NCBI RefSeq assembly: GCF_004010195.1
Contig: NC_057722.1
Location: forward strand, 55,394,295-55,458,294
Source: Chiloscyllium plagiosum
Taxonomy: Eukaryota
DNA length: 64,000 bases
Reading direction: 5' to 3'
Below, one piece after another: positions 8,401 to 60,903 of this stretch. A model generated the notes under the pieces. It did not search any database. It had not been told where the DNA came from and saw only the letters and a list, made by a program, of their open reading frames with translations. Position numbers and translations under genes: made by a program. Every line of letters begins with the position of its first letter. Within the stretch, counting starts at the first letter, position 1.

Positions 8401-11400
8401 AATGAATGCATTAAGATGGAAATGTATAGATGTTCACAGGTGTCAAGTTTTCTTGGGATCTTCCAGCTTCTATTTAGTTGGCCAGCCTACAATCAGCAAA
8501 TAGAGAGTTTGAGTTGAAAAGTGTGTTGCTGGAAAAGCACAGCCGGTCAGGTAGCATCCGAAGAGCAGGGGAGTCAACATTTTGATAATAAGCTCTTCAT
8601 CATATTCCTGAAGAAGATCTCATGCTCAAAATGTCAACTCTCTGCTCCTCAGATGCTTCCTGACCGGCTGCGCTTTTCCAGTGCCACATTTTTCAACTCT
8701 GATCTCCAGCATCTGCAGTCCTCACTTTCTCTTAGAGAGTTCCAGAGCCCAGTACATGGCAATGGTAAAATGACTGGACAGGATAGGGATAAGGCTGCCA
8801 AGACCTGCAGTCAATAGCAAGCACTTAGCATCTGCTCTTTCACTGCTTGTTTGAAGCACAAGGTGTGACACCAAGCAGTCTAGGTATAAATGAAAATTAT
8901 ACTCATATCATGTCTTTCACACACTTAGGATGACCCAAGACACCTTACAGTGAATTAAGCACATAAAATGTACTAACTGTTGCAATGTAGGTAAAGGAGA
9001 TAAGGTAACACAGCCAACAGAAGTATCTCCCCATCACTGCAGAATCTCTTCTAGTATTGTAAACTGTTCCACTCGCAAATCTTCTTTCATGTTTTTATTT
9101 CTTCACAGCAAGCAGCATCCTAATGAATCTGTGCTTTACCATTGCAAACACCTTCCGTCACACCAGGAACTTCACCGCCTCCTACCCCCTCCCCCCGCCA
9201 CCCCCCTTCACCCCTTGCTATCCACTACTGAAATGCAACAGAAATTCTGTTTTTATGTCCAACTGAGGTCCCTGTTACACTTACAGGACATTCCAACAGT
9301 GGAGTTGAAAAAAATTGCTGAAGAAATTCCCTGCCTAAAGAAGTCTCCAAACAGTGTGCTCAACAAGGTGTTTATTAATCGGGTAAAGTTGTTGCAAATG
9401 TTTAGTGAATGGGTGCTCCGAATAAATAATCAGAAAACTTACAGCGTTTTCTTGGGCTTTGTAGCTGCAGTCTTTCCAGATTTTCGCATTGCCAACAGAG
9501 CAATCGGTTTCTTGAATTGAAAATTTGATAAAATAACGTCTTCCACGTAATCCCTATTAAAATAGATTTTTTTCAGACAAACCTTTTTGATTCTGCGACT
9601 AAAATGTTGAAATAAAATTCAGAGAACCCTTGCTTGTATCATTACATTAGTTCATAAGGACTCCACAACAACACTGCCAGGAATTTTCTTAAAAATATTA
9701 AGTGATACAATGGCTGATATTATTCCAACTTCTAAATGGTTGCGCTCTGCAAAAAATGATTACATTAATAGAAAGTCTTATACAGTGTAATAAAATAAAA
9801 GCAAGACGCTGTGAATGCTGGAAATCTGAAACAAAGTCATAAAATGTTGGAGAAACTCAGTAGGTCTGGCAGCATCTGTGGAAAGAAAAGAAGAGTTAAT
9901 ATTTTGAGTCTGTTAATGACTCTTCTTTAGAACTGTCTCTTGCATAAAGTAATCCGTTGTGACAATGCTTATAAATATGTTACTTTTTAGAACTGTTTAA
10001 TTTGAAGTGGTAAAGAGGGGTATAAAATGCAACTTGTCCTCATCCTGTTTGACAACAAGCCTTGTGAGTGGTTGCTATGGGAACAAGTGAGGCACAAATG
10101 GATTCAGTGAGAAGGAAGTGCAAGATGTTTGCACTAGTGTCTAAACTGCAAGTCCTGGAACACAGGGACATTTTATGAGGGTCAGGGTTTACAACAGGAA
10201 AGAATGAAAAAAGACCCTTCTGAAATATGTACCATTCTTTGGGGGCTTGACAGCATAGATAGCAATGCTTAAAAATGTGTTGCTGGAAAAGCGCAGCAGG
10301 TCAGGCAGCATCAAAGGAGCAGGAGAATCGACGTTTCAGGCATGGCTTTCCCTCATGGGACAGTCAAGGACTAGAGGATATAAAATCTCACAGCAAGAGG
10401 TCATCCATTGAAAAAGGATGAGGAGATATGTGGGATATACAAAGACCTGGGGTACAGAATTTGGGGTGAACTGGAGCAAAGAAATTCAAAGAAAGTGGGG
10501 ACTTACAGGTGGACAAAAGGGAGAAAACTATGATTTGGACAGGCTGAGCCAGGCAAAACCTATCTAAAATTAACAGCAGAAGGTTAATAAGATTTAGGAC
10601 ACTTGGGAAGGGAACAACAAACAAAGGTATGATAGAGTGAGGGGAAAGATATAATTTGTATGAAGCTTGTGTGTCAGTCTGTTGACAACAAGCACACCAA
10701 AACAATGTGTACATGAGAGGTGAAACCTCCATAGGCTGCAAGTTTCCTTCTAGATCCTTGACAATTTGAAAAAAAATGTCTTCGATGTTCTCAGAACTGT
10801 GAGAATGTTCATATTCTGGGGAAAATAACAAGAGAATACATTTAAAATATTGAAAGGCTGTTCAGCTACTGAGTATTTCTTTTGCTCGTGTACTGAAACT
10901 GCTGAAGATCTTCCTACTGGTGACAATTTATTCCTCACTCTAAATAATCACAAGCCAATAAAATTACAAATTCCGTCTCTAATATACCTACATTATTCTC
11001 CTCCCACATAATACTCCCAAAATACCAGCACAGACTCTTCATTTCACAATCAATGACTGCTTTCAACAGAGTTATATTTTGCTGGTCTCTGATGCTCAGA
11101 TTAATTGGAGCTGGCAGCAAAAAGTGAGTTTTTAAACCAGGGTTTCTGAGGCAATTTGCACTTCAGGCAGGTTCCACAAGTTTGTGCATTTCATTGTTGA
11201 GCCTCCCTGGCATTCCTGTCATGATACAAATGTCAGAAATTTTCTTAGATTGCATTCATTGAATTACCCTTCGTTAACAGACATTTCTTCCTTCTGGAGG
11301 GGACAGAAAAAGCAGCCTTTGAAGAAATGTGCACCAATGTCCAGTCAGGCTCAGCTTTTGAGCTAATGTAATTTGAGCAGAAAACTTAGGACTCAGACTG

Positions 11401-12287: not shown

Positions 12288-12339
12288 ACTGACTAGAGGG
12301 ATATAGAGCTCTAAACAGAAATCAACAATAAAGAAAAAT

Positions 12340-12650: not shown

Positions 12651-12889
12651 TGCATAGTTAATGAATAATTCAAAGGTTACCAAATTTTTTGAAATGATTA
12701 TTTCTTTCAAATTTGCTGATCAGTTTAGGAACATTCCATTAGTTTGAACCTTGTTTTGTGATTTCTTGGTCATGTTACCATGCTCACATAACTATGAAAT
12801 ATAGGCACAATTCAAACTTAGTTTCTTGCTTCTAAAATCACAAAGAGGCAGCAGCCAGAGCAGTAAACAGTAGGTCTGATAATATGTAG

Positions 12890-13078
12890 AATAAAATAAA
12901 GAACTGCAGATGCCGACAATCTGAAACAAAAACAGAAACTGTTAGAGAAACTCAGCAGATCTGGTAGCATGAGTTCTGAAGACGGGTCACCAGACATGAA
13001 ACGTTAACTTTGCTTCCTCTCCACACATGCTGACAGACCTGCTGAGTTTCTCCAACTATTTCTGTTTTTATTTCCAAT
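12890..13078. mobile_element. Older Penelope-derived insert with hammerhead-like motif
   Basis: Inverted arms; agtt-CTGAAGA-cgggtcaccagacat-GAAACGTT-aact at 12972-13009. Confidence 0.7.
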
Positions 13079-13359: not shown

Positions 13360-16300
13360 GCCCATGAACAGGCCCTTCAGCCCTCCAAGCCTGAGCCGAT
13401 CCAAATTCACTGTCTCAACCTATCGCCCAATTCCTAAGCATCTGCATCCCTCTGCTCCCCACCTACTCATGCATCTGTCCAGACGGACCTTAAATGAATC
13501 TACCGTGTCTGCCTCTACTACCTCTGCTGACAATGCATTTCAGGCACCTACCACCCTCTGTGTAATGTATTTGCAGCATATATCCTTCTTAAGCTTCCCA
13601 CCTCTCACCTTGAACGCGTGACCTCTTGTTATTGAATCTTCACCCTGGGAAAAAGCTTGTCTCTATCCACCCTGTCTATACCCTTCATGATTTTCTAGAC
13701 CTCAATCAGGTCCTCCCTCAATCTCCTTTTTTCTAATGAAAACAATCTTAACCTAATCAACCTCTCTTCATAGCTAGCACCTTCCATACAAGGCAACATC
13801 TTTTTAAACCTTCTCAGCACCCTCTCCAATACGTCCATATCCTTTTGGTAATATGGTGACCAGAACTATACATGGTATTCTAAATGTGGCCGAACCAAAC
13901 TCTTTAACAATTTTAGCATGACCTGCCAGCTCTTATACTCAATACCCCATCCAATGAAGGCAAGAATTCCATATGCCTTCTTCACCACTCTATCCCCTGT
14001 GCAGCCACCTTCTTGAACTCCCAGATCTCTCTGCTCATCAACTTTTCCCAAGGCTCTTGCGTTTACAGTATCGTTTGCTCTAGAATTAGACATGCTAAAA
14101 TGCATCACCTTACATTTGCCTGGATTGAACTCCATCTGCCACTTCACCGCCCAACTCTCCAGTCTATCTATATTCTCCTGTTTTCTTTGACAGTCCCCTA
14201 TGCTTTCTGCTACTCCACCAATCTTCTTACCATCTGCAAACTTACTGATCAGACCAACAGTGTCCTCTTCCAGATCATTCATGTCTACAACAAACAAGAA
14301 TGGCCCCAGCACTGATCCCTGTGGAATACCATTGGTCACTTTACTCCATTTCAAGAAACTCCCTTCAACTACTATTCTCGGTCTCCATTTGCTCAACCAG
14401 TTCTTTATTATCCTAGCTAAAACACCCTGTACACCATGTGACTTCACTTTCTCTATTAGATTACCATGGGGAACCTCATAAAGCACCTTACTAAAGTGCA
14501 AGTATATGACATCTATAGCCCCTCCTTCATCTATCAACTTGGTCACTTCCTCAAAGAACTCTTAAGTGGTAAGGCATGATCTACCCCACACAAAACCATG
14601 TTGCCCAGCACTGATAAGCTCATTCTTTTCCAAATATAAATAGATTTTATCCCTCAGTACATTCTCCAGCAACTTTCCCACCACTGACGTCAGGCTCACT
14701 GGTCTGTAGTTACCCAAACTAACCCTACTGCCCTTCTTGTACAGGGGGACTACACGAGCAACCTTCCAGTCCTCTGTAGTATCCTTAAACACAGGTGAGG
14801 GCCTCAGCTATTTCCTCTCTCACCTCCCTCAGCAACCTGGGATAGATCCCATCTGGTCCTGGGGATTTGTGCACCTTAATATCCTTTAGCCTACCCTACA
14901 CATCTTCCTTCCTTATGTCAACGTGATCCAGAGTAAATAAACTTCTATCTCTAATCTCAGCATTCATCACCTCCCGTTCCTCAGAATCTCACCCATTTTC
15001 TCAGATTCAACACATAACCTTCCTTCCTGATCCTTTAGTGGACAAACCCTTTCTCTGGTTACCCTCTTGCTTCTTATGTAAGAATAAAGGGCCTTGGGAT
15101 TCTCCCTAATTCTGCTCGCCAAAGCTATTTCATGACCCCCTTTTAGCCGCTTGATTCCTCGTGTAAGAATGGTCCTACTCTCCCAATCTTCCTCCAAAGC
15201 CCATTCTGTTCTTAGCTGCCTGGACCTTATGTACACTTCCCTTTTCCTCTTGGCTAGTCGCACAATTTTTCCTGTCATCCACGGTTCACAAATCTTGCCT
15301 TTCCTATCCCTTGTTTTCAAAGGGACATGCCTATCCTGCACTATCTTCAACCTATCGTTGAAAGCCTCCCACATTCCCTTCAAATAATTGTGTCCAATCC
15401 ACATTTCCAAGCTCCTGCCTAATTTTGATATAATTGGCCTTGGCCCAGTTTAGTACTCTTCCCTTCAGATCACTCTCATCTTTGTCTACAAGTATTCTAA
15501 AACTTACAGAATTGTGGTCACTATTCCCAAAGAAATCCCCCACTGCAACTTCTACCACCTGGCCTGGCTCATTCCCCAACACCAGGTCCAATATGGCCCT
15601 TTCCCTTGTCGGACTATTGACATACTGCTGTAGAAAACTTTCCTGGATGCTCCTTACAAATTCTGCCCCATCCAGACCTCTGACACTAAATGTATCCCAG
15701 TCAATGTTGGGAAAATTAAAATCTCCCATCACCACCACCCTGTTGCCTCTACATCTTTCCATAATCTGTTTACTTATTTGTTTTTTTCTACCTCATGCTC
15801 ACTGTTGGGAGGCCTGTAATACAGCCCCACCAATGTAACTGCACCCTTCTTATTTCTCAGCTCCACCCATAACACCTCACTGCTTAAGCCCTCCATAGTG
15901 TCCTCCTTTAGCACAGCCGTGATATCATCCCTGACCAGCAAAGCAACTCCTCCCCCACTTTTACTTCCCTCCCTGTCCTATCTAAAGCGCCTATATCCTG
16001 GAACATTTAGTTGCCAATTATGCTCTTCCTTCAACCAAGTCTCTGAACACAAAAATGTCATACTCCCAGGCACCAATCCAAGCCCTAAGTTCATCTGCTT
16101 TACCCACTATACTCCTTGCATTAAAGTGTATGCACTTCAGGCCGCCAGTTCTTTTGCGCATATCTGCTCTCTGCCTACTCTTCCCCTTGGTAATGCTAAC
16201 TTTGTGATCCTTACAATCTCCGGTTTCCACCTCACTGTTTGGTAGTCTTCGCTTCTGGTTCCCAGCCCCCTGCCACATTAGTTTAAAATCTCCCCAACAG

Positions 16301-17480
16301 CAGTAACAAAAACTCCCCTAAGGATATTAGTTCCAGTCTGGTTCAGGTGTAGACCATCAATTTGTAATAGTCCCACCTTCCCCAGAACCAGACCCAATGT
16401 CCCACAAATCTGAACCCCTCTCTCCTACACCATCCCTCAAGCCATGTGATCATCCTGCCTATTCTTTCATTTCTACCCTGGCTAGCACATGGTACTGGTA
16501 GCAATCCTGAGATCACTACCTTTGACGTCCTCCTCTTTAACATCTCTCCTAGCTCCTTGAATTCTGCTTTCAGGACCTCATCTCATTTTTTTACTTATAT
16601 CATTGGTGCCTATGTGCACCATGACAACTGGCTGTTCACCCTCCCCTTTCAGAATGCTCTGCAGCCGATCAGTGACATCCCTGACCTAAGCACCTGGGAG
16701 GCAACATACCATCCGGGAGTTTCGTTTCAGCCACAGAACTGCCTAGCAACTTCCCTTACAATAGAATCCCCTATGACTATGACCCAACGTATCCTTTTCC
16801 CGTCTTTCTGAACAGCAGTGCCCGCCACGGTGCCATATCCTGGCAACTGCTGCCCTTCCCCAGTGAGCCATCTCCCCCAACAGTACCCAAAATGGTGTAC
16901 CTGTTTTGGAGGGAGATGACCCCAGGGGACATCTGCACTGCCTTCCTACTCTTTCGCTGTCTTTTGGTCACCCATTCACTGTCTCCCTCAGCAATTATAA
17001 TCTGCGATGTGACCAATTCACTAAACATGCTATCCACAGCCTCCTCAGCATTGCGGATGCTCCACAGTGAGTCCATCTGCAGCTCCAGAGCAATCATGCG
17101 ATCAAACAACAGCTGCACCTGGACACACTTCTTGCAAGTGTAAGAGTCAGGAACGTCAGCTACTTCCCTGAGCTTCCACATCAGGCACGTTGCACATGCC
17201 ACAGACCTGAGCTCCCTGCCATTGTAAGCTTTAGTTTTACATCAACTAACTAAAACCACACAATGCATTTAAATATATGAAAGAAAAGAAATTTTAAAAA
17301 AGCCTTACCTTACAGAGTCCTTTTCCTTCTGGTTAGAGGAGGGTGGACAGGAGGGAGATACTACATGTGCAGTATCTCGGGTTTAGCTGCTGCCCAAATT
17401 TATACTAAGTCCTTACCTTCCTGGCAACCTCCTTATCTCCAACGTCACCTCCGCTCTGTCTCCCGCTGCTCCCAGACAGG
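13360..17480 (-). mobile_element. Near full-length but disrupted CR1 LINE
   Basis: ORF1 has a Zn-finger (CATCLMW..CKKC) and an SGNH-esterase region (VVISGLLPVP..WLEGWCRREGFRF). ORF2 has APE motifs (FNARSIVGK, MGDFNFPNIDW, SDHNSV) and RT motifs (NYRPVSLTSVVGKLLE, GIPQGSVLGP, SKFAD). Frameshifts and stops are present. Confidence 0.93.
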
Positions 17481-18879: not shown

Positions 18880-18975
18880 GTCGAACATGTGGTGTTGGAA
18901 AAACACAGCTGGTCAGGCAGCATCCGAGGAGCAGGAGAATCAACGTTTCATGCATAAGACCTTCATCAGGAATGT
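18880..18975 (-). mobile_element. Penelope-derived short insert
   Basis: Family sequence with minus-strand CTGATGA-aggtcttatgcat-GAAACGTT. Confidence 0.75.
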
Positions 18976-19667: not shown

Positions 19668-20928
19668 CAAAGGGAAATCATGTCTTACAAACTTGATTGA
19701 GTTTTTTGAAGAAGTAACGAAGAGAATTGATGAGGACAGAGCGGTAGATGTGATCTATATGGATTTCAGTAAGGCGTTCAACAAGGTTCCCCATGGGAGA
19801 CTGATCAACAAGGTTAGATCTCATGGAATACATGGAGAACTAGCCACTTAGATACAAAACTGGCTCAAAGGTAGAAAACAGAGGGTGATGGTGGAGGGTT
19901 GTTTTTCAAACTGGAGGCCTGTGACCAGTGGAGTGCCACAAGGATCGGTGTTGGGTCCTCTACTTTTTGTCATTTACATAAATGATTTGGATGCGAGCAT
20001 AAGAGGTTCAGTTAGTAAGTTTGTAGACGACACCAAAATTGGAGGTGTAGTGGACAGCGAAGAAGGTTATCTCCAGATTACAACAGGATCTTGATCAGAT
20101 GGGCCAATGGGCCGAGAAGTGGGAGATGGAGTTTAATTCAGATAAATGCGAGGTGCTGCATTTTGGGAAAGCAAATTTTAGCAGAACTTATACACTTAAT
20201 GGTAAGGTTCTAGGGAGTGTTGCTGAACAAAGAGACCTTGGAGTGCAGGTTCATAGCTCCTTGAAAGTGGAGTCACAGGTAGATAGGAAGGCGTTTGGTA
20301 TGCTTTCCTCTATTGGTCAGAGTATTGAGTACAAGAGTTAGGAGGTCATGTTGCAGCTGTACAGGACATTGGTTAGGCCACTGTTGGAATATTGCTTGCA
20401 ATTCTGTTCTCCTTCCTATTGGAAAAATGTTGTGAAACTTGAAAAGGTTCAGAAAAGATTTATAAGGGTGTTGCCAGGTTTGGAGGATTTGAGCGATAGG
20501 GAGAGGCTGAACAGGCTGGGGCTGTTTTCCCTGGAACGTTGGAGGCTGAGGGGTGACTTTATAGAGATTTACAAAATTATGAGGGGCATGGATAGGATAA
20601 ATAGACAATTTTTTTTCCCTGGGTTGGGGAAGTCCAGAACTAGAGGGCATAGGTTAGGGTGAGATGGGAAAGATATAAAAAAGACCTAAGTGGCAACTTT
20701 TTCACGCAGAGGGTGGTATGTGCATGGAATGAGCTGCCAGAGGAAATGGTGGAGGCTGGTACAAGCGCAACATTTAAAAGGCATTTGGATGGGTATATGA
20801 ATAGGAAGGGTTTGGAGGGATGTGGGCCGGGTGCTGGCAGGTGGGCCTAGATTGGGTTGGGATATCTGGTCAGCAGGGATGGGTTGGACCGAAGGGTTTG
20901 TTTCCATGCTGTACATCTCTATGACTGT
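19668..20928 (+). mobile_element. 5'-truncated CR1 LINE inserted into an older CR1 (about 19100-21130)
   Basis: GKSCLTNLIEFFE, GVPQGSVLGPLLF, KFVDDTK, and a complete 3' tail ending catctctatgact. The older element continues on both sides. Confidence 0.92.
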
Positions 20929-21763
20929 AAGTGTATCCCTTACTGCTAAGCGACGCTCAGAAAGAAATAACAGAAACTCTGACCATCATACATGATGATA
21001 CACAGATGATTTTTTTAAATGCAAAAATCTTCACCTGGAATTACTGCAATGAACTTTACAGTGGGGACATACTGCTTGTACATCTCCATCTATCTGATTG
21101 GCTGACAGCTGCATCATTCCAGCAGCAACAGGGATCAGTCGATGATCCCTGAATGGTGGACAAACAGTTGCAACCAGGTCAGTAGGTCAACGAGGAATCG
21201 TTAACTCTTGGGATGGGGATTGTGGGAATGTCATTCTAAATGTTAAGAGGGAGACACTGACAGACTGAAAGGAGTCACTGAGACAGTCAAACTCTTCTGC
21301 ATCCCCATGGCAACATCCTGACCAAATAGAATCTACCAACCTGGTCTGAGAATTAAGAGCTTCTGCTAGTCAGGGAGAGACCAGATGGAGGGCAAATATG
21401 AAGGGAGCACAGCTTGACAGGCCAAGACCTGGGAATGAGGATAAACTTAGAGCAGAGAAGCACTGCTGGCAGCAGCTGGAAAGAACAAGATCAGGGCCGG
21501 AGGTAAAGGCAGTGTGTAAGAACAGTGAGGAGGAACCACAGCAACCATTTCGAGGTGGAACTTCAGAGAGAAGCAAGAGCAGCTTCAGAGTCAGGAACAG
21601 CACAAACAGAGATGGAGCCAGTCAGCTACTGCAATAGCATAAGGGAGGCACAGAGCACGGGTCTTGATATTGAAAATTAAAAGTGCTCAGGGGACACAAT
21701 GGCAGTCAGCACCGGTCTGACTGACCATTTATAAAATTTTCAGTTTGCTGATGTGGCAGCTAC

Positions 21764-21850
21764 TGAAAATGTGTAGCTGGAAAAGCGCAGCAGGTCAGGC
21801 AGCATCCTTTTCAGCTCTGATCTCCAGCATCTGCAGTCCTCACTTCCTCC
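21764..21850. mobile_element. Penelope-derived mini insert with 16-bp TSD
   Basis: ctgatgtggcagctac at 21748-21763 and 21851-21866. Confidence 0.85.
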
Positions 21851-23242: not shown

Positions 23243-23575
23243 AGGCGGAGCAATGGCTCACAGTGACCCAAGTTCAATTCTATCCTTGGGTGACTGTCTG
23301 TGTAGATTTTATGCATTCTCCCCATGTCTGCATGGGTTTCCTCCAGGTGCTCTGGTTTCCTCCCACTGTCCAAAATGTGCAGGTTAGGTGGATTGGCCAT
23401 GCTAAATTGCCCATTGTGTCCAAGGATGTTGAATTAGGTGGATTAACCATGGGAAATGTAGAGTTACTAGGATGGGGTGGGTCTGGGTGGGATGTGATTC
23501 GAAGGGTCAGTTTGGACTTAATGCATCAAATGGCCTACTTCCACTCTGTAAGATTCTATGATTCAATGATATTCT
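23243..23575 (+). mobile_element. V-SINE (HE1-like)
   Basis: Central gggtttcctccaggtgctctggtttcctccc domain and gattctat tail. Confidence 0.8.
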
Positions 23576-27096: not shown

Positions 27097-27229
27097 GCTG
27101 ATGAAGGGCTTATGCCTAAAACATCGATTCTCCTGACCTGCTGCGCAGGATATTGCCTGACCTGCTGCGCTTTTCCAGCAACACACTCTCGACTCTGATC
27201 TCCAGCATCTGCAGTCCTCACTTTCTCCT
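27097..27229 (+). mobile_element. Penelope-derived short insert
   Basis: ctgatgaagggcttatgcc...ctccagcatctgcagtcctcactttctcc. Confidence 0.8.
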
Positions 27230-27297
27230 ATATTATGTTGCTGTCCAGTGACACTTCCATCCCTTGACTGTTCAGTCCTGCTCCTACTGTAATAAGC

Positions 27298-49300: not shown

Positions 49301-52300
49301 GCTCCTCATATGACAAGCCCTTCATCCTCAGGATCAATCTTGTAAATTTCCTCTGTACTCCCTCCATCACTATCATATTCTTCCTTAGATATGGGACCCA
49401 GAACTAGTCACAATACTCCCAATGCCTTGTACTGTCTCTGCTCTTGTATTCTAGCCCTCTTGAAATGAATGCTGACATTGCATTTACCTCCCTGTCTGCC
49501 AACTGAACCTGCTTCTTAACCTTTTGAGAATCCTGAATAAGGACTCCTAAGCCCCTTTGTGCTTCAGATTTCCAAAGCCTTTCCCCATTTTCAAAATAAT
49601 CTACACCTCTATTCTTCCTACCAAAGTGCACAACCTCACACGTTATATTTCAACTGCCCCTTCTTTACTCACGCTCCTCAGCTGTTCAAGTCCTCTGCAG
49701 CCTCCCCACTTCCCCAACACTTCCTGCCCATCCCCTTATCCTTGTGTTATCTGCAAACTTACAATGCCGTCAGTTACTTTATCCAGATTGTTAATGTATA
49801 ATGTGAATAATTGTGGTCCCAACACTGATCCCTGTGGAACTCTACTACTGACTGAAAACAAACCAGATGGTCCAATTTTTCCTTATAAAACAAGCTGCTC
49901 ATTATCAATTTCGTAAAACTCTTATGAACTATGCCCAATGTATTTACATTCTTAAATAAGGAGACCAAAACTATACACAATATTCAAGATGTGATCTCAC
50001 TAATACTCTGTAACTAAAGCATTATGTCCTTACTCTTATTTTCACTTCCCTTCACAAAAAAGGCTAGCAATCCACAAATGTTCCTATTTGTTGCGATTTT
50101 TGAGAAGATTTGTAGCTCAGGTTGATGATAAGTATGTAAGTTAGCTCACTGAGCTTGAAGGTTTGTTTTCAGATGAAACTAACTTACATACGTTCCTATT
50201 TACCTTTGTGTCATTAATGTGCGTTGCCACCATGCCTTCAAACCCTTCATCTAAGTCATTGCATTAAATTGTAAAATGTTGAGGGTACAGCACAACCCTC
50301 TGCAGGTCCCCAATTATCCCAAGCTGCCAATTATGAATCTGACTCATATATGTACATACTCTCTGTTTTCTACCTGCCAGCCAGCCACCCAATCTTCTGT
50401 CTGTCATTGGTATGTTAGCCCCAGTGCCATGAGCTCCTACTTTGTGCAATAATGTTCAATGAAGATCTATGTCAAATACCTTCTGGAAATCACAGTGTAG
50501 TGCATTGATTGACTCCCATAATGCAGAGACTAGGAGAAGCGAGAACTGCAAATGCTGGAGATCAAAGTCGAAAAGTGTGGCACTGGAAAAGCACAGCAGA
50601 TCAGGCAGCATCCAAGGGGCAGGAGAGTCGACATTTCAGGCATAAGACCTTCATCAATAATCCTGATGAAGGGCTTATGCCCGAAACATCGACTCTCCTA
50701 ATCCTCGGATACTGCGTGAGTTGCTGTGCTTTCCAGCACCACACTTTTCAACTCCCATAATCCAGAGCTCATACAATTCCTTCAAAGATACTCATGCATG
50801 GCATCATATAAACACTTGTTTGAACAAACAATTATTGACGTTTGAGATGTAGCTCAATTCCCGACATGCTATTCCAGTGAGCCGTAACAGCTGGCCCATA
50901 GCTTCCGGTTTCCATTTGGACCCAGAGACTTAATAATCTGCAGCTCTGCCAGTTTGCCATTTATACCTTCCCTCGTGATTAGGATTTCATCAAGTTCCTC
51001 TTATTATACCTCATTGGGATGCCATGCTGGAAATCGAGCCCTGCTTTTTCCAGAGGAATCACAAATAATTTTTTTTTATAAACTATGTAATCATTCTCAA
51101 TTTGGCTGACATTCAAACCATAGTTGATAGAAAGCATGGATCAGGTTTCTGTCCAGCACACTAATGCACTAGTTATTTCAAATAATTGGAATCTAGTTAC
51201 AGGTAAACAGTTAGAAACCATCAATACCATGAATTAAAGGTCTAATCCCCTCATAAATCCCCTTATAAACTCCACTTTATGTACAGACAGACAAATGAAC
51301 AGGGAAAATAGGTTATTAGGCAGTGGGGAGACAAACTAGGAAGACAGATCAGTAGTCTTTGTTCTTTGGTTCTGTGACTGAGATGAGCTTTATGATCTTT
51401 CTGCTAGCAATCTTTAATTGTCTTTCTCTGGATGCTTCCACTTATTAGTAAGAGATACAAGGTGGCTGATTCACTTATAAAAATGCTTCTGACTTATCAG
51501 TTAAAATTCACAGTTTACACAACTATTACAGGAAGATAATTTGGCTTTCTTCAGATTTCAAGTTAGTTTTGGCTGCAGACAACAAGAAACATTGAACTCT
51601 TTGCACCCTCTATCAGTAATTGTTCCAACTGTTCATTTATTTGAGAACTCATCTCAAAGTGTTGGCAGAAAAATGGTCTTTGTCATTGATAACTGGTCAC
51701 TAGTCCATATACCAATCAACTTCTTGTTGCCAACTAGAGCTGCACCAGTACACCCAGTTGGATCCAAATCAACTGCATTTCAACCTTCAATTACTGCTTG
51801 TTTGTACAAATGTTTACATGATGTTGCAGTGAGAGTGAGGTTACTGGCTTTAAAAATATACAGCCACCCTTTTAAACACTGATTTTAAAGGACTCATTAC
51901 AGTCCGTGGTGTTTGTTTAAAACAAAACACAATTTAAAAAGCACAGTCCTTACATGCTTTTTCTTTAACCTACAGATTTGTTGGTATTGCTGTGATATTT
52001 TGTGTCTCCTCTTGAGTGATGGAAGCATAACATTTACTCATTATATCCACCATTTCTTTGTTATATACTATTAACCCTGTATCCTCATAGTAGAGGACCA
52101 ACATTCATTTAACATTTTTGTTCCTCTTTAGATTCCACTAGAAACCCTTGCTGTCTTTTTTTTAAAACACTTCTGGCTTCTTCTTATGCTCTAATTTATT
52201 AATCCTGATTAACTTTCTAGTTATTCTCTGTTTTTTGCATTCTGACCAGTCATCTGATCTGCACTTATATGTTCTCTTAACTTCTAAGGAATACAGTCAG

Positions 52301-55300
52301 CCTGAAAATGATTGTTCAGAACAGGTGATCATCTGAGGGTATGACAGAAAGTACAAGCTTTCCCAAGGTATCCAGATGTAACCTTTTGGATCCATTTAGA
52401 TCCTTCTAGCATGTGAATTATTGATTATGCACCTGAAAATGAGATATAACTTATACTTAAAACATACACTATATTGCATTTAGCAGTTTATCATACCTGA
52501 ATTTATTGTGCAGTTATATTCAGTTATTTCAGCTTTTTCTCTGAGTTTTTCGATGAACGTTTTCAACTTACAGTGACCCATAGTCTAAAAACAAGTATCA
52601 GAATTAAGAAAAAGTTGCAATTTACATATAAGGAACACCAAAGTCTGAATTTTAATTAAAGCCTACATTGTGTCAACATGCTGCTGTAACCTATAACTCA
52701 GCACTGTTTGGAATGAGATGTATTTTAATCAAACAATTTTGGAATAGTTGTAAATATTTGTTGATGGTGTTTTCAGAGTAAATAATCAGAAAACTTACAG
52801 CTTCTGCACGTGGTCTAATGTTGCATTCTTTCCAGATTGTTTCATTTCCAACAGGGCAATCTGTTTCTTGGATAAAATAATCAATACTATATATTTTTCC
52901 TTGTAATTCCTGTGAATAACAGATTTATGTCAGTAAGTATTCTTGATGCTTCAGTTTAAACAATGAAATTGAATTCATATAGAACCTGTTTATAACATTT
53001 TGAGTTCATCAAGGTTTAAAAATATTGATACAATCAATGATCTTATTCTAACTCCTAATTTAATATACTCGGCCATAGACCTGTCAAAGTAATAGAATTT
53101 ATACAGCAAACTATATGGTATCCTGTATAAAGTATTTAAGTGTGATGTCTAACAGATACAAAGATTATAAATATGTTAATTATTGGGACAATCTATGTAA
53201 TATAAAATGGAGAAGTTAAGACATGTTTCAACTCTTGCCTACAAGCAAGCCTGCAAGGTTTGTTTTGTATGGAAACAATGGAGCCTAGATTTCTTTACTG
53301 GAAATAAGGTAAAAAGTATTCAAGCACAGGAGAATCGACATTTCGGGCATAAGCCCTTCTTCAGGCTTATGCCCGAAACGTCGATTCTCCTGTTCCCTGG
53401 ATGCTGCCTGACCTGCTGCGCTTTTCCAGCAACACATTTTCAGCTCTGATCTCCAGCATCTGCAGACCTCACTTTCTCCTAAAAAGTATTCAAGCCCATG
53501 AACAACGAGGAGACTCAAAGTTTGTGCGAAGATTTGTAGCTAGGGTGCTCGTTGTTGTGGTTCTGTTCGCCAAGCTGTCCGCTGTCAGTTCCAGCTATCC
53601 GCTGCAGTGGCTGGTATATTGGATCTAGGTCAATGTGGAACTGACATCCGGAAGCGGCAGATTCAAACCACTATAAATGCCAGAGAAAAGATCACAGAAG
53701 CGCTTCACAGGAGGCTCCCAAACACTGAGGATGTCACCTAGACAGGGGACGAAACGTCTGCAACACAAATTCCCAGCTCGGCGAACACAACCACAACAAT
53801 GAGGAGACTAGTTGTGCTAATATTGGGTAAACTATTGGTATCCTGGTCTTATAGGAATGTAAAGCTTTATACATGATTATACTTAAAGTGGCTGTTTAAC
53901 TGGAGATTAAATGAAGTTAGGAGCTGGAAAGACAGCTAATTTATTTTTCAACCATTAGACAAGACATATCAGTTCATGTTGCTTTATCCTGTGCTTTAAG
54001 CCAGTACTGTTACTTGCATGTTGAGATACCAATCTGGAATATCTCTGTACCGTGAGTGCCTGCATGTATACTGTCCCTGAGGATGCTTGCTCCTTACTTC
54101 TACCTCTACTTCAAATCCTCATGTATTATTTACACTCGTATAAAACAGTGTCTAAGTTCTTTCTCTTGTGCTTGTTCTAGACTGGTCACTGCTATTTTAC
54201 TGATGTCTGAGTCATGTGATCAGTGTCATCAACATGATTTACAGAAATCTCATCGCACCATGCACATGATGTGAAGATGCTGGTGTTGGATGTGGGATGA
54301 ACAAAGTTAAAATTCACACATTACCAGGTTAAAGTCCAACAGTTTATTTAGAAGTAAACCTGTTGGACTATAATCTGATGTTGTGTGATTTTTAACCATG
54401 CACATGCTATTGAGATAGACTTGTGAGAGGAGAACAGACTATAAATGGCTGTTGAAGGATTGACTTAGAGGGTTTTCTTATGTTACTTCTGAATCTGTCG
54501 GACATGTCAGTTTGTTAGGATCTGTGAAAGAGAGCAGAGAGCAGTCAGCAGAATTCAGGTTGGAACTTGCATTCAGATTGAAGAAGCGAGGGTCAGAAAA
54601 TTTGAAATGAGGCTGGTAGATTAATCTAGCTTTGGCTAGAAGGATCTATCTCCAGCATAATGCTTACCATGAAAGTCAGTTTGAGGGTTCAAAGTTGAAG
54701 GACGATAATAAGAAAAAGAAAGCAAGCCACTGGGAGCTGAAACTAGCTTTAGACTAGTTCCTGGAGAATTAAATGCCCACTGTAGTAACATAGTATAATC
54801 ATGCAAGGGGATTTTCAACCATTTAAATGTTAAGTGGGAAATGTCTTTTTAGACTCGTAACTATTTACAGTACAGATGGACGCCATTTAACACATCATGT
54901 TCACACTAGTCCACAAAGATTAGTTACTCTAATACCATTTTCCAGCTCTTGGTCAACAGTCCTGAGGCTGTGGCAATGCAAGTGAATATGTAAATACTGC
55001 CTAAATGTTAGGCTAATTTCTGACTCAACCACTCTTTCAGGCAGCCAAACTCCCACCACCTTTCTAGGTGAAAGCATTTTTTTCTCCTCAAGTATCCTCT
55101 TAGCCTTCTACTGCTTGGCTTAAATCTATGTTTCCTGATTATTGACCCCCCTACTGAAGGAAAAGTACCTTCTTAACCAACATCTCTGTGAACCACACTT
55201 CATTCAGGTTCCCTCACAAGCGTCACTGATCCATGCCTTAGCAAATAAAGGCAAGTATCCCTATGCTACCTTAACCACCTTAAGGGATCTATAGATGTGC

Positions 55301-58300
55301 ATACCAAGGTCCCTCTGACTTTTGAAACTCACTAGGGTCCTGTCAGTCAGTCTAATCCTTTGCTTTGATGGCACTCACCAAGTGCATTACCTCACATTTT
55401 TCTGGGTTGAATACTATTTGCCACTGACCTCCCCACTTGACCAATCATGGATATTTTCCTGCAGTTGAAGGTTAACCCCTTACTACTTACCACCGTGAAA
55501 GTGGTTGTGTCAACCTCTTACATTTGCATTCAAATTATCAATGTGCACCATGAGCAGCAGAGCCGAAGGAGCATGTCTTGCAGAACCCTACTGAAAACAG
55601 ATTTTCAATCACAGAAACATCTTTCAACAATCACCTTGTGCTTCTTGCCTCACTACCAATTTGGATTCAGCATGCCACTTTGCTCTGAATCCCGTGGACT
55701 CTTACTTTTCTTGTCCAGTTTGCCATGTGGGATCTTAATGGAAACCTTGCTAAAATCCATGTAGACCATATCAAATGCATTGCCTTCATCAACACCACTG
55801 GTTACATCCTCAAACATTTGATCAAATTTGCCAAAAATGACCTTCCTGTAATAAATCCATGCTGAGTGTCCTTGTTAATCTGTGCCTCTCCAGGTGCAGT
55901 CTGTCCTCAGAATTCATTCTAAACTCCCCCACTGCTGACTAGGCCTGTAATGTCCTGGCTTATCCCTTCCTAATAATGGGATGACATTTGTAAACTTCCA
56001 ATCCTCTGGCAACTTACCTGAAAGGACTTCAAAATTACTATTAGGGTCCCTGAAATGTCCTTCCATGTCTCATTCATTAGCCTGGAATACGTCTCAACCA
56101 AGAACAATGGATATGTCCATTTGGCATGCTGCCAAATTCACTGGTATCTCCTCTCTCTTTTTGTTAGTTTCTTCTTCTATTTAACAGTCTTCCATCCCAA
56201 TATCTATGCCTGTGTTGTCCCTCTCCATTGTGAAAACCAATGTAAAGTGTTCATTGAGGACAATCTTCCGGCTCCACACACAGATTACCTGTATAGTCCC
56301 TAATGGGATGTTTCCCTATATATATATATAGAAATTTCCTTTGTTCTCCTTTTATTCTAGCCACCAATGCTTTCTCATGACTCCCTTACATTTCCTAATT
56401 TTTTTTCTAAATTCCCCTCTGTATTTTTTATGCTCCTCCAGGGACTCAGCCATATTGAGCCTCTGCTATGTGAACGAATCTACCCTTCTTATTCCTGTCC
56501 TTTTTTGTCTCTTGACATTTAGGGTTCTCTGGTCTTGGTCCCATCCTTTGTCTTTATGGGAACATATTTGCTTTGCAGTCTTACTATTTCCTGCTAAATG
56601 CCTCTCACTGCTCTGATGCAGTTTCATCTGCTCCAAGCAGCTGCTCCCATTCCATTTAGGCCAAATCGTGTCTTATCTTAGAAAGGTTAGCCTTCACCCA
56701 GTCCTGAACTTTTATTCTTGACCTATTATTGTCCTTTTCCATAACTGTTGTAATCTAACAGTGTTATGGTCACTATTTCCAAAATACCCTTGTTTTGGTA
56801 CATCTTTCACATTGATTACTTCATGGAATCCCTCCAGTGTGGAAGTAGACCATATGGCCCATCAAATACACATCATCCCTCTGAAGAACATCCCACTTAG
56901 ACCCAGCCATCCCTGTAACCCTGCATTTCCCATGGATAACCCACATAATCATAGACACTAAGGGCAATTCAGCATGGCCGATATTCCTAACCAGCACACC
57001 TTTGAACTGTGGGAAGAAACCAGAACAAACCCATGCAAACACGGAGAGAATGTGATTTTAACTTCAGTTCTATATTTCTGGCTTATCACCCATTTCAGCC
57101 CCTTGGTAATCAGCCTTAAAAATATATAAAGGTTCTGCAGCCGCTATCTTTTTGAGAAAGGAATTCCAAAGACACTCAACTCTCAGAGAGGGAACATTTT
57201 TCATCTCTGTCTGACATCAGTGCAACTGGCAGTAAAAGGTCAGTTTACAACTAGCAGTTCCCAGTTAATTGTATTTTAGGCAGGCACCATAAGTTGACCA
57301 TCCAGCCTGTTTAGCACTCCTGACTAACATGACACAAATATCAAAAGATTTCTTAGATTGGGTCATTTTCATCTCCCTTCCTCTACAGTGATATATTTTC
57401 GATTGGGAGGGGAATGACTAAAGATTAGATTCCCTACAGTGTGGAAACAAGCCCTTCGGCCCAACAAGTCCACACCAACCCTCCGGAGGGTAACCCACCC
57501 AGACCCATTTCTCTTTGACTGACATACAAACACAATGGGCAATTTAGCATGGCCAATTCACCTAACCTGCACATCTTTGGACCATGGGAGGAAACCCACA
57601 CAGACACAGGGAGAACCTGTAAACTCCACACAGACAGTCACCCAAAGCTGGGTCCCTAGTTCTGTGAGGCAGCAGTGCTAACCACTGACCCACTGTGCCA
57701 CCCCACTAAAGGAACAGGGAAATATGATAGAACAATTGTAAGACCATGAAAGGATGGTAAAACCACCATAGGATAAAAGTAGCTCCAAATCCACTCAAGT
57801 TAAGCTGATGAACAAATGTAATTTGAACTGAAAACTGTTACGAAGTTGTGGGTGCACTGTATCATTAAGGGAGCTGAAATTTCTGGCGAGTACAAAGTAT
57901 TCTGAACAAGGTAACAATGTAACATTTGGTCAAACAGCAAGCTGTTGTTGGGTTGCAATAAGACAAAAACAAATTCAAATTCAGCTAATCAGTTTAAATT
58001 ATGCGCCAAGATACCAAACTCCAATCAAATTTGAATTTAGTATTTTGAAAATAGTAAACCAATGAAACGATCCAATGTTTTGGGGTACAAAAACAGAAAA
58101 AATTGAACAACTGGGGAAGAACTGCCAAGCCACCACCAAGTACAGACTGCCAGCAGAAGAGCTCTCTGAGTAGTACCTGTCTATAAGATTGTGCAGCAGA
58201 ATATCAAGACCGACTTGGAGAGAGAATCTACAATGGAAAATCTATAGAGAACACTTGGAAATGCTGACTGGTTTTGAAATTTTTATTTGTAAATCTTATT

Positions 58301-60903
58301 TGAGATTTTTATTGGACTAGCTGGTGGCACAGTGGTTCGCACTGCTGCCTCACAGCGCTAGGGACCCAGGTTCAATTCCAGCCTCGGGTGACTGTCTGTG
58401 TGGAGCTTGCACATTCTCCACGTGCCTGCCAGGGCTTCCTTTGGGTATTCTGGTTTCCTCCCACAATCCAAAGATGTGCAGGTCAGGTGAATTGGTCATG
58501 CTAAATTGCCCAGATAGGTACATTAGGTAGGAGAATGGGTCTGGGTGGGTTACTCTTCAGAGGGTCAGCGTGATGAAGGGCTTTTGCCTGAAATGTCAAT
58601 TTTCCTGCTCCTCGAATGCTGTGCTTTTCCAGCACCACTCTAATGTTGACTGTAATCTCCAGCATCTGCAGTACCCACTTGTGCCTAGAGGGTCAGTGTG
58701 GACTTGTTGGGCCAAAGGGCCTGTATCCATACTGTAGTGAATCTAATCTAATCTAGTATTGTAGAGTGGGAGATAAAAGATATGCTTCAGAGAAAGGAAT
58801 TGCAAATAGTTGTTAGTTAATATTCTCTGTTAGACTTACAGAATACAGTTCTTAAAGTTTTACTTCAAATAGTGACTTTTGGGATAGTTCTTTGCCTCTC
58901 GAATTTTAACAGATTACAGCATGGGGTGAATCTTTTCTGTGTGGCCAGTTGAAATTAGCAGAGGCAGTTACCCCATGTCATAATAAAACCCAGACCATGA
59001 ACTATAGCAGCAGGTCAATCTATTAGCTCAAGCTGATCTGTTCATGATCTATTCCTTTTGTATGGGCAGCTAGGTATTTTGGAAGGGCTTCAGAGGACTG
59101 ATCAGAGGCCATCATGACAGAGAAGCTAAGACTACCAGTGCATGTATTCTGCCTTTTAAATGTACATCATTCTAGAGCAGCAATAGAATGGATGTCAACA
59201 CTAGAAAAGGAAGATGGGGATGGCCATAGAAGATCTGGCAAAGTACATTTTAAGGAAGAATTTTGAACACAGGAGACTGGATTGGCATGAAAGACATTGC
59301 AATAGATTGAGACTTGTGGCAGTGTCTTGCTGCCTATTGTCCAATACGAGACCAGAGAAATCAAGTCTATGTTTATTATCCTTGCAAGCCAGCTTGCAAT
59401 ATGTAAAACAGAGGACAGTGATTATTGGCCTGTTTCTTTAGAACATAGAACATAGAACAATACAGCACAGAACAGGCCCTTCGGCCCACGATGTTGTGCC
59501 GAACATTTATCCTAGCTTAAGCACCTATCCATGTACCTATCCAATTGCCACTTAAAGTTTGCCAATGATTCTGACTCTGCCACTCCCACAGGCAGTGCAT
59601 TCCATGCCGCCACCACTCTCTGGGTAAAGAACCTACCCCTGACAGCTCCCCTTTCCTTCCACCCTTCACCTTAAATTTATGTCCCTTNNNNNNNNNNNNN
59701 NNNNNNNNNNNNNNNNNNNNNNNNNNNNNNNNNNNNNNNNNNNNNNNNNNNNNNNNNNNNNNNNNNNNNNNNNNNNNNNNNNNNNNNNNNNNNNNNNNNN
59801 NNNNNNNNNNNNNNNNNNNNNNNNNNNNNNNNNNNNNNNNNNNNNNNNNNNNNNNNNNNNNNNNNNNNNNNNNNNNNNNNNNNNNNNNNNNNNNNNNNNN
59901 NNNNNNNNNNNNNNNNNNNNNNNNNNNNNNNNNNNNNNNNNNNNNNNNNNNNNNNNNNNNNNNNNNNNNNNNNNNNNNNNNNNNNNNNNNNNNNNNNNNN
60001 NNNNNNNNNNNNNNNNNNNNNNNNNNNNNNNNNNNNNNNNNNNNNNNNNNNNNNNNNNNNNNNNNNNNNNNNNNNNNNNNNNNNNNNNNNNNNNNNNNNN
60101 NNNNNNNNNNNNNNNNNNNNNNNNNNNNNNNNNNNNNNNNNNNNNNNNNNNNNNNNNNNNNNNNNNNNNNNNNNNNNNNNNNNNNNNTTTAAACCACCAA
60201 ATTGAAACTGCTTTATGCTGACTTTCTGAACATAAATTCATTCTAAGTAGCTATGAATCACTGAACAGTAAGTCAATGATGTGGCCTGGTGGTCCAATAT
60301 GGACATATAATACATTGGGTAGGATGTTGGTGAAGCATAGAGGTGTCTTGTATTGGTGTGGCACATTGGAGTTCTAATACAGTGTGTATGGCTCTGTAAA
60401 ATATGATTGTCAATATTATTTCCACAAGCAAATTCCTCATCTCAACTACTATCTAGTGAACATATGGACCAGAAGCAAAGTAATGGGAAGCTATGGGTGA
60501 TATATTTTCTCCACATGATCAGTCAAAGTAACTACAACCTGACAACTTACATATATATGCTCAAAATGTTTTCCAAAAGAAATAGAAAATGCACTTAAAT
60601 ATCATAATGCAAGGAGAAATATTATTACACTTGTATACACATATTACACAATAATAGAGTAAACGATTTGCTTACCTTTGCTCTAGCCCTGAAGACATAG
60701 TGAAGAGCAAATTTATGACCACTTGTCAGGTTGGCATTTAATTTACGAAGAGAGAAATCTACACCAGCTAGAACGTCTGGATCATCACAAGAGATAGGCT
60801 CAAGTGCAATATCTGGATGTGACTTAAGTAATGGTATTGGTGGTGAATCAGTATTAACATATAACAGTTGAATGATAAAGAAAGCAATGTGCAGAAGTTC
60901 CAT
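34228..60903 (-). CDS. kng1: Kininogen-like gene, paralog B (complete, 7 coding exons, 309 aa; two cystatin domains, kinin-like segment, CPG tail)
   Basis: join(60903-60676, 52909-52799, 52584-52497, 45535-45378, 44484-44371, 37224-37141, 34374-34228). All introns are GT-AG with phases 0,0,1,0,0,0. The 930 nt give 309 aa plus stop with no frameshift. Motifs: signal peptide, ISCDDPDV, QETDC..IWKEC, CPGCP, Q|VVAG, QETECSKE, PKCPGKTWK (human HMW kininogen has PKCPGRPWK). Confidence 0.88.
36103..36298. mobile_element. Penelope-derived fold-back insert with 14-bp TSD
   Basis: agcaatttgtttct at 36089-36102 and 36299-36312; inverted arms. Confidence 0.85.
36366..37054. mobile_element. Non-autonomous Tc1/mariner (Tigger/pogo-like) DNA element
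   Basis: TA-flanked imperfect TIRs cagaaggccctcaaatatcc / ggataatcgaggttcttctg, with internal gattatccgaac repeats. Confidence 0.7.
37141..37224 (-). CDS. kng1: Paralog B exon 6 (end of cystatin domain 2)
   Basis: tgttatag|MFCHSEVITQIWMNYTAVDITCTYEPFP|gtaatt; 84 nt. The C..V..xW..C pattern matches the last cystatin exon of kininogen, and it ends in phase 0. Not in the ORF track. Confidence 0.85.
37305..37922 (+). mobile_element. CR1 3' fragment
   Basis: RT C-terminal motifs and a cttatggtcttatg tail. Confidence 0.85.
38472..39916 (+). mobile_element. 5'-truncated CR1 LINE interrupted by a Penelope-derived insert
   Basis: NYRPISLTSVVGKILE, YLDFQKAFDKVPH, GVPQGSVLGP, KFADDTK; a 5-N gap at 39606-39610. 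Confidence 0.92.
38691..38882. mobile_element. Penelope-derived fold-back insert with 15-bp TSD
   Basis: aacccagt(a/g)gatgtg at 38676-38690 and 38883-38897. Confidence 0.85.
41025..41225 (-). mobile_element. CR1 3' tail
   Basis: (atagaac)n tail followed by caggccctttggccc. Confidence 0.75.
41400..42420 (+). mobile_element. Old CR1 endonuclease-region fragment
   Basis: IYRPP and IGDFN remnants. Confidence 0.6.
42488..42706. mobile_element. Young Penelope-derived insert: perfect 187-bp palindrome with hammerhead cores
   Basis: 93-bp arms at 42488-42580 and 42582-42674 with no mismatch; flanking repeat ccttttttaaaacata at 42473-42488 and 42707-42722. Confidence 0.92.
42584..42611 (+). ncRNA. 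Minimal type I hammerhead ribozyme motif (mirror copy on the minus strand)
   Basis: CUGAAGA-a-GGGC-uuau-GCCC-GAAAC-GUC; palindromic ACGU replaces helix III. Confidence 0.7.
43330..43930. mobile_element. Second-family Penelope-derived element with long inverted termini, absent from the homologous intron of paralog A
   Basis: Inverted arms at about 43365-43500 and 43805-43930, each with a cac-CTGA(T/A)GA-aggagc..-(G/A)AAAGC-type motif; A and B homology resumes on both sides. Confidence 0.75.
44371..44484 (-). CDS. kng1: Paralog B exon 5 (QVVAG loop)
   Basis: taaacag|VVAGMKYELKFTIQETECSKEDSNIRAANCDAKADGEK|gtgagt; 114 nt. Confidence 0.92.
45378..45535 (-). CDS. kng1: Paralog B exon 4 (start of cystatin domain 2)
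   Basis: ttccatag|(G)NRPRPPCPGCPRHQLDHPKLNEIIALAVAKFNTESNYTNYFQHDIVFTFTYQ|gttaga; 158 nt. Confidence 0.9.
46217..46518 (-). mobile_element. V-SINE (HE1-like)
   Basis: tRNA head, V domain and tail. Confidence 0.85.
46793..47122 (-). mobile_element. V-SINE (HE1-like)
   Basis: tRNA head, V domain and tail. Confidence 0.85.
47335..48608 (+). mobile_element. Penelope-like retroelement, 5'-truncated and degenerate (RT thumb, GIY-YIG, 3' repeat)
   Basis: FHPNLKFT..LPFLD..TDIYYKPT, LVLTFHP, FTCTSSNIIYFIWCSRCGLL*IRET, PVAIHFNS, LIFHLGRLQP..MNIEF. It ends in the same sequence as the short inserts, with a decayed hammerhead at 48515-48541. Confidence 0.88.
48878..49850 (-). mobile_element. CR1 LINE 3' fragment
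   Basis: MEFRRMRGDL and GVPQGSVLGP remnants, plus 3' tail. Confidence 0.85.
50529..50750. mobile_element. Penelope-derived fold-back insert with TSD
   Basis: actcccataat(g/c)cagag at 50512-50528 and 50751-50767; CTGATGA-aGGGCttatGCCC-GAAACATC at 50663-50690. Confidence 0.85.
52497..52584 (-). CDS. kng1: Paralog B exon 3
   Basis: tttttag|TMGHCKLKTFIEKLREKAEITEYNCTINS+G|gtatga; 88 nt, phase 0 to 1. Confidence 0.88.
52799..52909 (-). CDS. kng1: Paralog B exon 2
   Basis: ttcacag|ELQGKIYSIDYFIQETDCPVGNETIWKECNIRPRAEA|gtaagt; 111 nt, typical second-exon size for kininogen/fetuin cystatin domains. Confidence 0.9.
53326..53479. mobile_element. Penelope-derived insert with 16-bp TSD
   Basis: taaaaagtattcaagc at 53310-53325 and 53480-53495. 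Confidence 0.88.
53516..53794. mobile_element. Third-family Penelope-derived insert with hammerhead motif and 15-bp TSD
   Basis: aacaa(c/t)gaggagact at 53501-53515 and 53795-53809; partly inverted structure. Confidence 0.8.
53725..53758 (+). ncRNA. Minimal hammerhead ribozyme motif
   Basis: CUGAGGA-u-GUCaCCU-agac-AGGgGAC-GAAAC-GUC, with ca/ug closing helix I. Confidence 0.7.
54269..54394. mobile_element. Penelope-derived mini fold-back (family 2) with 12-bp TSD
   Basis: accatgcacatg at 54257-54268 and 54395-54406. Confidence 0.75.
54860..56820 (-). mobile_element. Old degenerate CR1 LINE
   Basis: Remnants of YMDFSKVS and QHGF motifs, plus a 3' tail. Confidence 0.65.
56825..57052 (-). mobile_element. 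V-SINE fragment
   Basis: V domain and tail. Confidence 0.8.
57423..57704 (-). mobile_element. V-SINE (HE1-like)
   Basis: tRNA head, V domain and tail. Confidence 0.85.
57836..58985 (+). mobile_element. Probable solo LTR (Gypsy-like) containing nested inserts
   Basis: tgttacga ... tcataata termini (decayed inverted repeat) with a 4-bp aaac duplication on both sides. Confidence 0.55.
58322..58755 (+). mobile_element. V-SINE inside the LTR, itself interrupted by a Penelope-derived insert (58573-58686)
   Basis: Full tRNA head and V domain; TSD agagggtcag(c/t)gtg at 58559-58572 and 58687-58700. Confidence 0.85.
59440..59687 (-). mobile_element. CR1 3' end running into the gap
   Basis: (tagaaca)n tail and FFTQRVV motif. 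Confidence 0.8.
59688..60187. other. Assembly gap (about 500 N) in intron 1 of paralog B
   Basis: Run of n. Confidence 0.99.
60676..60903 (-). CDS. kng1: Paralog B exon 1 (signal peptide and start of cystatin domain 1)
   Basis: MELLHIAFFIIQLLYVNTDSPPIPLLKSHPDIALEPISCDDPDVLAGVDFSLRKLNANLTSGHKFALHYVFRARAK; donor AAG|gtaagc; 228 nt, the same length as paralog A exon 1. Confidence 0.9.

Follow-up and report, generated by a model that had tools for sequence, protein, structure and literature searches.

A 64,000-nt stretch of shark DNA (the window) carries 18 short inserts that are probably 5′-truncated 3′ ends of coding Penelope-like elements (PLEs), consisting of the pseudo-LTR (pLTR) and an optional 32-nt tail and likely dead on arrival. 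The swarm of short inserts that had been predicted here is borne out: it extends from 8512 to 58686 and comprises 12 inserts of group A, three of group B, two of group C and one of group D. The predicted size of 90–600 bp fits 17 of the 18 inserts approximately (85–609 bp) and fails for one of 1.2 kb (47364–48608). The inserts are listed below, with arm coordinates counted from C3 of the hammerhead core, which is taken as 0; TSD denotes target-site duplication.

8512–8731, plus strand: group A, putative Neptune-type PLE 3′ end; inverted arm, direct arm and 32-nt tail; core decayed; 9-bp flanking repeat
9807–9935, minus strand: group B single arm with tail; core decayed; TSD not found
10272–10356, minus strand: group A single arm without tail, starting at +14; core lost; TSD not found
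12888–13075, unstranded: group B fold-back with motif at 12972–13009 (plus); helix I AGUU/AACU, helix II decayed; 11-bp flanking repeat with one mismatch
18884–18974, minus strand: group A single arm, about −5 to +85; core intact, helix II decayed; TSD 12 bp (one mismatch)
21763–21850, unstranded: group A mini fold-back without motif, inverted +44 to +88 and direct +86 to tail; TSD 16 bp
27098–27229, plus strand: group A single arm with tail, starting at C3; AAAA for GAAA; TSD not found
35770–35930, unstranded: group B decayed fold-back; motif remnant at 35839 (minus)
36100–36298, plus strand: group A fold-back truncated within helix II; one arm tailed; TSD 14 bp
38690–38884, minus strand: group A fold-back in a LINE remnant; one arm tailed; TSD 15 bp
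42488–42709, plus strand: young group A fold-back, a 94-bp perfect hairpin with intact motifs on both strands (C3 at 42584 plus and 42578 minus); predicted cut after 42611; tail 42678–42709; TSD 16 bp
43322–43930, plus strand: group C insert; tailed inverted arm 43322–43491 with motif at 43446 (minus), direct arm of 437 bp with motif at 43851 and TATAAA at −40; TSD not found
47364–48608, plus strand: old 5′-truncated putative Neptune-type PLE (group A); RT-thumb and GIY-YIG remnants and pyrimidine-rich 3′ UTR; decayed motif at 48515 with helix I AGUC
50532–50754, minus strand: group A fold-back; plus-arm core intact (50663) with ACAU for ACGU; TSD 17 bp
53326–53480, plus strand: young group A insert; 40-nt inverted arm and tailed direct arm from +9; TSD 16 bp
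53515–53800, plus strand: group D, Poseidon-type PLE 3′ end; two inverted pieces and direct arm 53636–53800, which contains an ORF end and the motif at 53725; TSD 15 bp
54268–54397, unstranded: group C mini fold-back without motif; TSD 12 bp
58569–58686, plus strand: group A single arm with tail in a SINE-like repeat; TSD 14 bp

The origin from Penelope elements is supported by what lies upstream of these ends. Elsewhere in the genome the ends of groups A, C and D are joined to RT/GIY-YIG coding sequence, and for this reason we read the inserts as truncated ends of coding elements. The sequence upstream of the group A end is a pyrimidine-rich 3′ UTR followed further upstream by GIY-YIG/RT coding DNA, as one window insert shows (47364–48608), and the same continuation is found in 29 other fetched loci at 70–80% identity. 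Young long group A copies have the same end at 97–100% identity; since these copies run into gaps (assembly gaps lie upstream in 23 of 30), no intact full-length source element was recovered. A near-complete, broken Neptune-type copy (L105:3175–6990) has an inverted arm, an upstream tail, a 5′ region and a 3′ pLTR, and its interrupted ORF retains a frame of 341 aa with RT-thumb and endonuclease. The inserts had been described as non-coding, which does not hold for 47364–48608, an RT-thumb/endonuclease remnant, nor for 53636–53800, which carries the last codons of a Poseidon-type ORF.

As judged from sequence, group A is Neptune-type; the assignment rests on a CX2-5CxxC linker before GIY-YIG, which also marks Nematis and is present in A copies L105, L089 and L147. 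Group D is regarded as Poseidon-type because this linker is absent (D copies L070 and L078), the ORF reads through the motif (L074, L076) and an RVT_1 domain is matched in L076 (Pfam, E 3.5e-12). Group C is joined to an endonuclease C-terminus in L107; its clade placement is presumptive, drawn from this short endonuclease tail and from clade motifs. Group B has body and tail in common with A and is tied to coding DNA via this homology only. Pfam scans of 17 fragments gave no GIY-YIG match, and RVT_1 was matched only in L076, L100 and a LINE in the window; similarity look-alikes of two frames were GIY-YIG/HTH_animal clusters at 0.93–0.96, which serve as leads only.

The four hammerhead motifs predicted in the window were found where expected (42584, 53725, about 43415–43450 on the minus strand, and 12976). 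Their sequences support an identity as minimal type I hammerhead ribozymes (min-HHRs), as described in the pLTRs of metazoan PLEs by Cervera and De la Pena 2014 (PMC4209133), and all traits listed in the accessible part of that paper are matched: a type I core without helix III and with an additional nucleotide that lies between 9 and 10.1, the G10.1–C11.1 pair, palindromic 15.2–16.2, many families in one genome, motifs that are mostly single and stem from truncated PLEs, and pairs on opposite strands. In copies of groups A, C and D, the majority bases comprise CUGANGA and GAAA, the NUH triplet and palindromic 15.2–16.2, with no helix III. A descriptor of core plus helix II yields five matches in the window versus 0.16 in 50 shuffles, and 50 matches in 580,595 bases of a blind sample (sixty 10-kb stretches placed at round coordinates along the 39 largest contigs) versus 1–4 in five shuffles; the strictest descriptor yields two in the window and 28 in the blind sample versus 0 in shuffles. 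Both strictest matches in the window lie inside the 42488–42709 palindrome, and most other motifs there are decayed, the 11-nt core being kept on an arm in 6 of 18 inserts. The motif at 43446 (minus) has AAAA in place of GAAA, and its partner at 43851 has GCCA in place of GCUA. The predicted helix II GUC/GAC at 12976 is present, as the inner part of a decayed 5-bp helix. Instead of four sequence families, the four groups represent three independent lineages, because A and B have body and tail sequence in common.

Across six lineage representatives the core is identical at 165/165 positions versus 70/300 and 94/300 in the 20-nt flanks. As three of these representatives had been picked by the core itself, the comparison was repeated on copies picked by a downstream anchor only, a set that omits window copies and arms not reaching −4. 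Among these copies the majority bases spell the same core, which is intact in 38 of 54 A, 10 of 16 C and 13 of 17 D copies. Conservation of the core above its flanks is thus supported, and the sequence-based refutation offered with the prediction does not apply. Covariation is likewise supported: helices I and II differ on both sides between lineages yet still pair, helix I as AGUC/GACU, AUUC/GAAU, AGUU/AACU, CAC/GUG, GCA/UGC, CCA/UGG or UCA/UGA, and helix II as GGGC/GCCC (4 bp) in group A and GGAGC/GCUCC in group C. The helix II of just 4 bp in group A, as well as a U-U mismatch in helix I of its youngest lineage, departs from the motifs in the available text of PMC4209133. A group A sublineage (L081, L096, L101, L135) has a perfect 4-bp helix I, AUUC/GAAU, and two more min-HHR lineages that are absent from the window (L088, L093, L112, L123) have a GUUACCU-type helix II and helix I CCA/UGG and UCA/UGA. 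An Rfam scan matched no hammerhead family and gave only hairpin-driven miRNA matches below threshold. The RNA of the 42488 insert is predicted to form a single 94-bp hairpin (−200.6 kcal/mol) in which the motif is buried. When five motifs were cofolded as dimers, the hammerhead fold was never the energy minimum and helix I formed in two, a result that is uninformative because such programs do not model the core.

Fold-back structure occurs as predicted, two-arm inverted inserts being present in the window in groups A, B, C and D. Of 21 two-arm loci, 19 carry the tail on one arm and not on the other. Forty of 40 scored genome matches to the 42488 insert are 94–100% identical, and 20 copies of this element at 96–100% identity have at least 13 distinct fold-back centres, several with short templated additions. 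Ten of the 18 window inserts lie between direct repeats of the predicted 12–17 bp (one mismatch at most), and two further inserts have shorter repeats of 9 and 11 bp. In a strict test on 79 loci from blind genome samples plus the window, TSDs of 12–19 bp with a mode of 14 were found at 23/79 loci versus 3/152 random positions. The tail is followed by element sequence in 2 of 116 cases (L105, L119), none of them in the window, and diagnostic variants of the short palindromes are present also in a copy that reaches −215 (L117). The variable centres, the hairpin-buried motif, the tails at which the inserts end and the variants in common with a long copy speak for dead-end products.

We propose that the inserts are likely products of the reverse transcriptase and GIY-YIG endonuclease encoded by the elements themselves. 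The enzyme would nick both target strands about 14 nt apart and prime one cDNA per nick, using the two start sites on either side of the tail, one for each cDNA; both cDNAs would reach the same stop and then be end-joined to a palindrome. The variable centres show that the fold-back is rebuilt at each insertion. We infer the two start sites and the extension of both strands from the anole Poseidon element PAc, for which they were shown in vitro in the available part of Frangieh 2024 (PMC11167929): two RT start sites bound the tail, both target strands undergo cutting and extension, the RNA serving as template is uncut and no reads end at the cleavage site, all as in our model. The PAc motif overlaps the ORF start, whereas the group D motif overlaps the ORF end; furthermore, unlike in PAc, the group A ORF likely starts after the tail. 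The layout also resembles EN+ PLE insertions, described in the accessible portions of PMC8557442 and PMC3846280 as an inverted 5′-truncated copy with a tail of 30–40 bp. Alike are the inverted arm on the 5′ side, the tail at one end, the variable TSD, the strong 5′ truncation, the partial tandems and the assembly gaps, whereas most inserts here are reduced to the pLTR alone and stop sharply at the motif, a stop of which those portions make no mention.

This stop is evident from the 5′ ends of the arms. With arms beside gaps and four B-type arms dropped, the blind sample has 29/48 group A arms ending at +5 to −12 versus 0/19 in the next 18 nt (Fisher p 1.5e-6), and 7/14 group C arms versus 0/7 (p 0.047); including incidental and window copies, the counts are 55/80 versus 2/25 for A and 12/24 versus 1/12 for C. 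The most frequent group A stop is −4 (13/109), and about two thirds of group A arms stop at or before −12. An initiator-like motif, YYANWYY with its A at −4, is present in 19/24 long A copies, and a TTTATC-type motif at −35 to −37, 31–33 nt upstream of −4, in 22/24; TATAAA lies at −36 to −40 in 9/9 long C copies. We read the pile-up at −12 to +5 as marking, somewhat more likely than not, the 5′ end of the RNA, that is, the transcript start. In the Neptune-type groups the stop would then be the likely RNA 5′ end, at an initiator-like site overlapping helix I. Against a transcript start speaks that TTTATC is no canonical TATA box and that group C has no matching initiator near its stop. A smaller stop at the foot of helix II, which suggests a role for RNA structure, and the internal promoter of D. 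virilis Penelope count against it as well. Group D has TATAAA at −53 in 12/17 copies and shows no pile-up (0/16 arms at +5 to −60), and the transcript-start reading is therefore not extended to the Poseidon-type group. A splice acceptor as cause of the −4 stop was rejected, the AG being present in old copies and not in young ones.

Alternatively, the pile-up could reflect arrest of the reverse transcriptase on folded RNA (helix I/II or a hammerhead dimer) of a full-length transcript, in which case the inserts would still be dead ends. This we judge rather unlikely, even though the main stop falls on helix I, on its 5′ strand, and a second, smaller stop lies at +13 to +25, the 3′ foot of helix II, where the stop hazard is 0.011 per nt in A and 0.016 in C versus about 0.004 elsewhere. 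The main stop is located beyond the hairpin and not ahead of it, no pile-up is seen in group D, whose helix II is longer and whose core is the same, and the initiator/TATA spacing that a transcript start calls for fits in A and partly in C.

Only 2/103 group A arms, and 0/33 of group C, stop at the cleavage site (+26 to +30), and the template was consequently uncut RNA. The same counts rule out cut-site truncation as proof of in vivo activity, and an apparent group C stop peak near the cut site was gone once better references were used. The hammerhead would be selected in the source elements and, in the short copies, merely carried along uncut. According to the available text of PMC4209133, min-HHRs described so far show no activity as monomers and weak activity as dimers; in that of PMC11167929, cutting by the anole motif requires protein, and insertion in vitro can proceed without the motif.

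The original prediction viewed the inserts as a non-autonomous ribozyme-bearing system, which is not supported for the window inserts and fits a small class outside the window, namely internally deleted tandem units. If the short inserts themselves were SINE- or retrozyme-like elements, short masters would be transcribed and copied in trans by Penelope protein. Short copies are indeed more numerous than long ones and have a common start point, trans-mobilised deleted units do exist outside the window, and for D. virilis Penelope an internal, TATA-less promoter is reported in the accessible part of PMC2377424; with such a promoter short copies would remain transcribable. We nevertheless consider this explanation improbable. 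The fold-back centres differ from copy to copy, no tested variant is private to short copies, the window inserts lack what longer copies have beyond the tail, and the anole element needs RNA beyond the RT start site, as stated in the part of PMC11167929 at hand. A short-only subfamily was rejected for the one variant pair tested, which also occurs in a long copy, and a short master with fixed ends and private variants was encountered only as the deleted-unit subfamily outside the window. That the palindromes are MITE-like DNA elements, moved by cut and paste between terminal inverted repeats, is highly improbable: the near-perfect inverted arms and near-identical dispersed copies that suggest it are accompanied by TSDs of 11–17 bp, an unpaired tail on one arm, differing centres, and single-arm and 1-kb coding versions in a continuous length series into RT/GIY-YIG coding DNA.

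Direct tandem units that each have a complete motif are absent from the window; L119 has two, 334 bp apart, and in this locus from the blind sample (L119:2135–2709) 137 nt of the element 5′ region are joined to the 3′ UTR. In L119 and L171–L191, the deleted unit reads tail, 124–137 nt of 5′ region, junction, 3′ UTR from −60 to −93, motif and tail. A junction search gave 40 matches, and all 20 fetched loci have such a junction; one junction with private variants is common to 9 of these 20, and about 10 top matches agree with it at 96–100%. The query itself accounts for part of this clustering of junctions. In L187+L191 one unit occurs twice, as a tandem, and L189 has the same junction on both arms (L184 has different ones); hence the junction was in the template. 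Copying of internally deleted units in trans implies that trans-mobilisation does occur. By their sequence, the internally deleted tandem units of 325–345 bp appear to behave like a true non-autonomous, retrozyme-like derivative, a minor class with 1/90 sampled loci and none in the window.

A broader, tentative model would regard the swarm as a record of 'strong-stop' retrotransposition and the deleted units as retrozymes at birth. The Neptune-type RNA would begin at the initiator, which is the 5′ strand of hammerhead helix I; the reverse transcriptase would prime at the first tail that it meets and integrate run-off cDNAs of 95–130 nt, often two per site. Recurrent junctions about 125–137 nt past the tail would give rise to the deleted units of 325–345 bp, and these would regain tandem motifs and be copied in trans. 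Non-LTR retrozymes, as far as the accessible texts of Cervera 2020 (PMC7229834) and Li 2026 (bioRxiv 10.64898/2026.07.22.740005) describe them, resemble the deleted units in having two motifs in direct tandem and in being derived from the pLTR, whereas the window inserts are monomers or inverted pairs with minimal instead of canonical motifs. The L119-type tandem agrees with the tandem arrangement by which non-LTR retrozymes are defined in the available text of Li 2026, where the mean retrozyme consensus in one chondrichthyan is 363 bp.

High copy number, also predicted, is supported for the host genome of 3.56 Gb. A profile search detected 90 A/B loci in the blind sample, from which about 5.5 × 10^5 are extrapolated for the genome, and 14 in the window; with about 10 expected, the window is ordinary for the genome. 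Extrapolation from strict anchors gives 3.4 × 10^5 A, 1.0 × 10^5 C and 0.4 × 10^5 D loci, so that roughly 3–5 × 10^5 loci of this kind are estimated overall. The min-HHR hosts given in the accessible part of PMC4209133 are Neptune and Poseidon of fishes, coelacanth (about 4,000) and Xenopus (about 9,000); cartilaginous fish are not named there, whereas the extrapolation here is about 1.7 × 10^5 strict motifs per genome.

Class, motif and architecture of the inserts are already published; added here are the pile-up of 5′ ends on an initiator-like site and the internally deleted tandem class. Our literature search found no shark-specific description of such inserts, although Repbase/Dfam and the supplements of papers may name them. 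Their value is that of a test bed, as the copies map where the Penelope template begins and where the reverse transcriptase starts and stops. Hundreds of thousands of copies would also show whether cleaved RNA is ever used; the present sample indicates uncut RNA as template and suggests that transcription begins at helix I. A concrete path by which a coding element could become a retrozyme is provided by the deleted tandem units.

Other repeats surround the inserts. A broken LINE occupies 13866–17241 (minus strand; endonuclease PF14529, E 2e-10; RT PF00078, E 4e-13), and more LINE remnants lie near 20273–20932, 25215–26238, 38600–39617 and 63434–63949. A second abundant short repeat family, which we take to be SINE-like, is present at 3486–3843, 23261–23412, 27297–27501, 46221–47135, 56820–57714, 58323–58512 and 61621–61772, and the 58569 insert sits within one of its copies. 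An assembly gap spans about 59690–60190, with 505 N in the window overall. Two copies of another repeat, 1931–2218 and 43934–44222, are 88% identical; as the group C insert 43322–43930 interrupts the latter, the copy at 1931–2218 may show the empty site.
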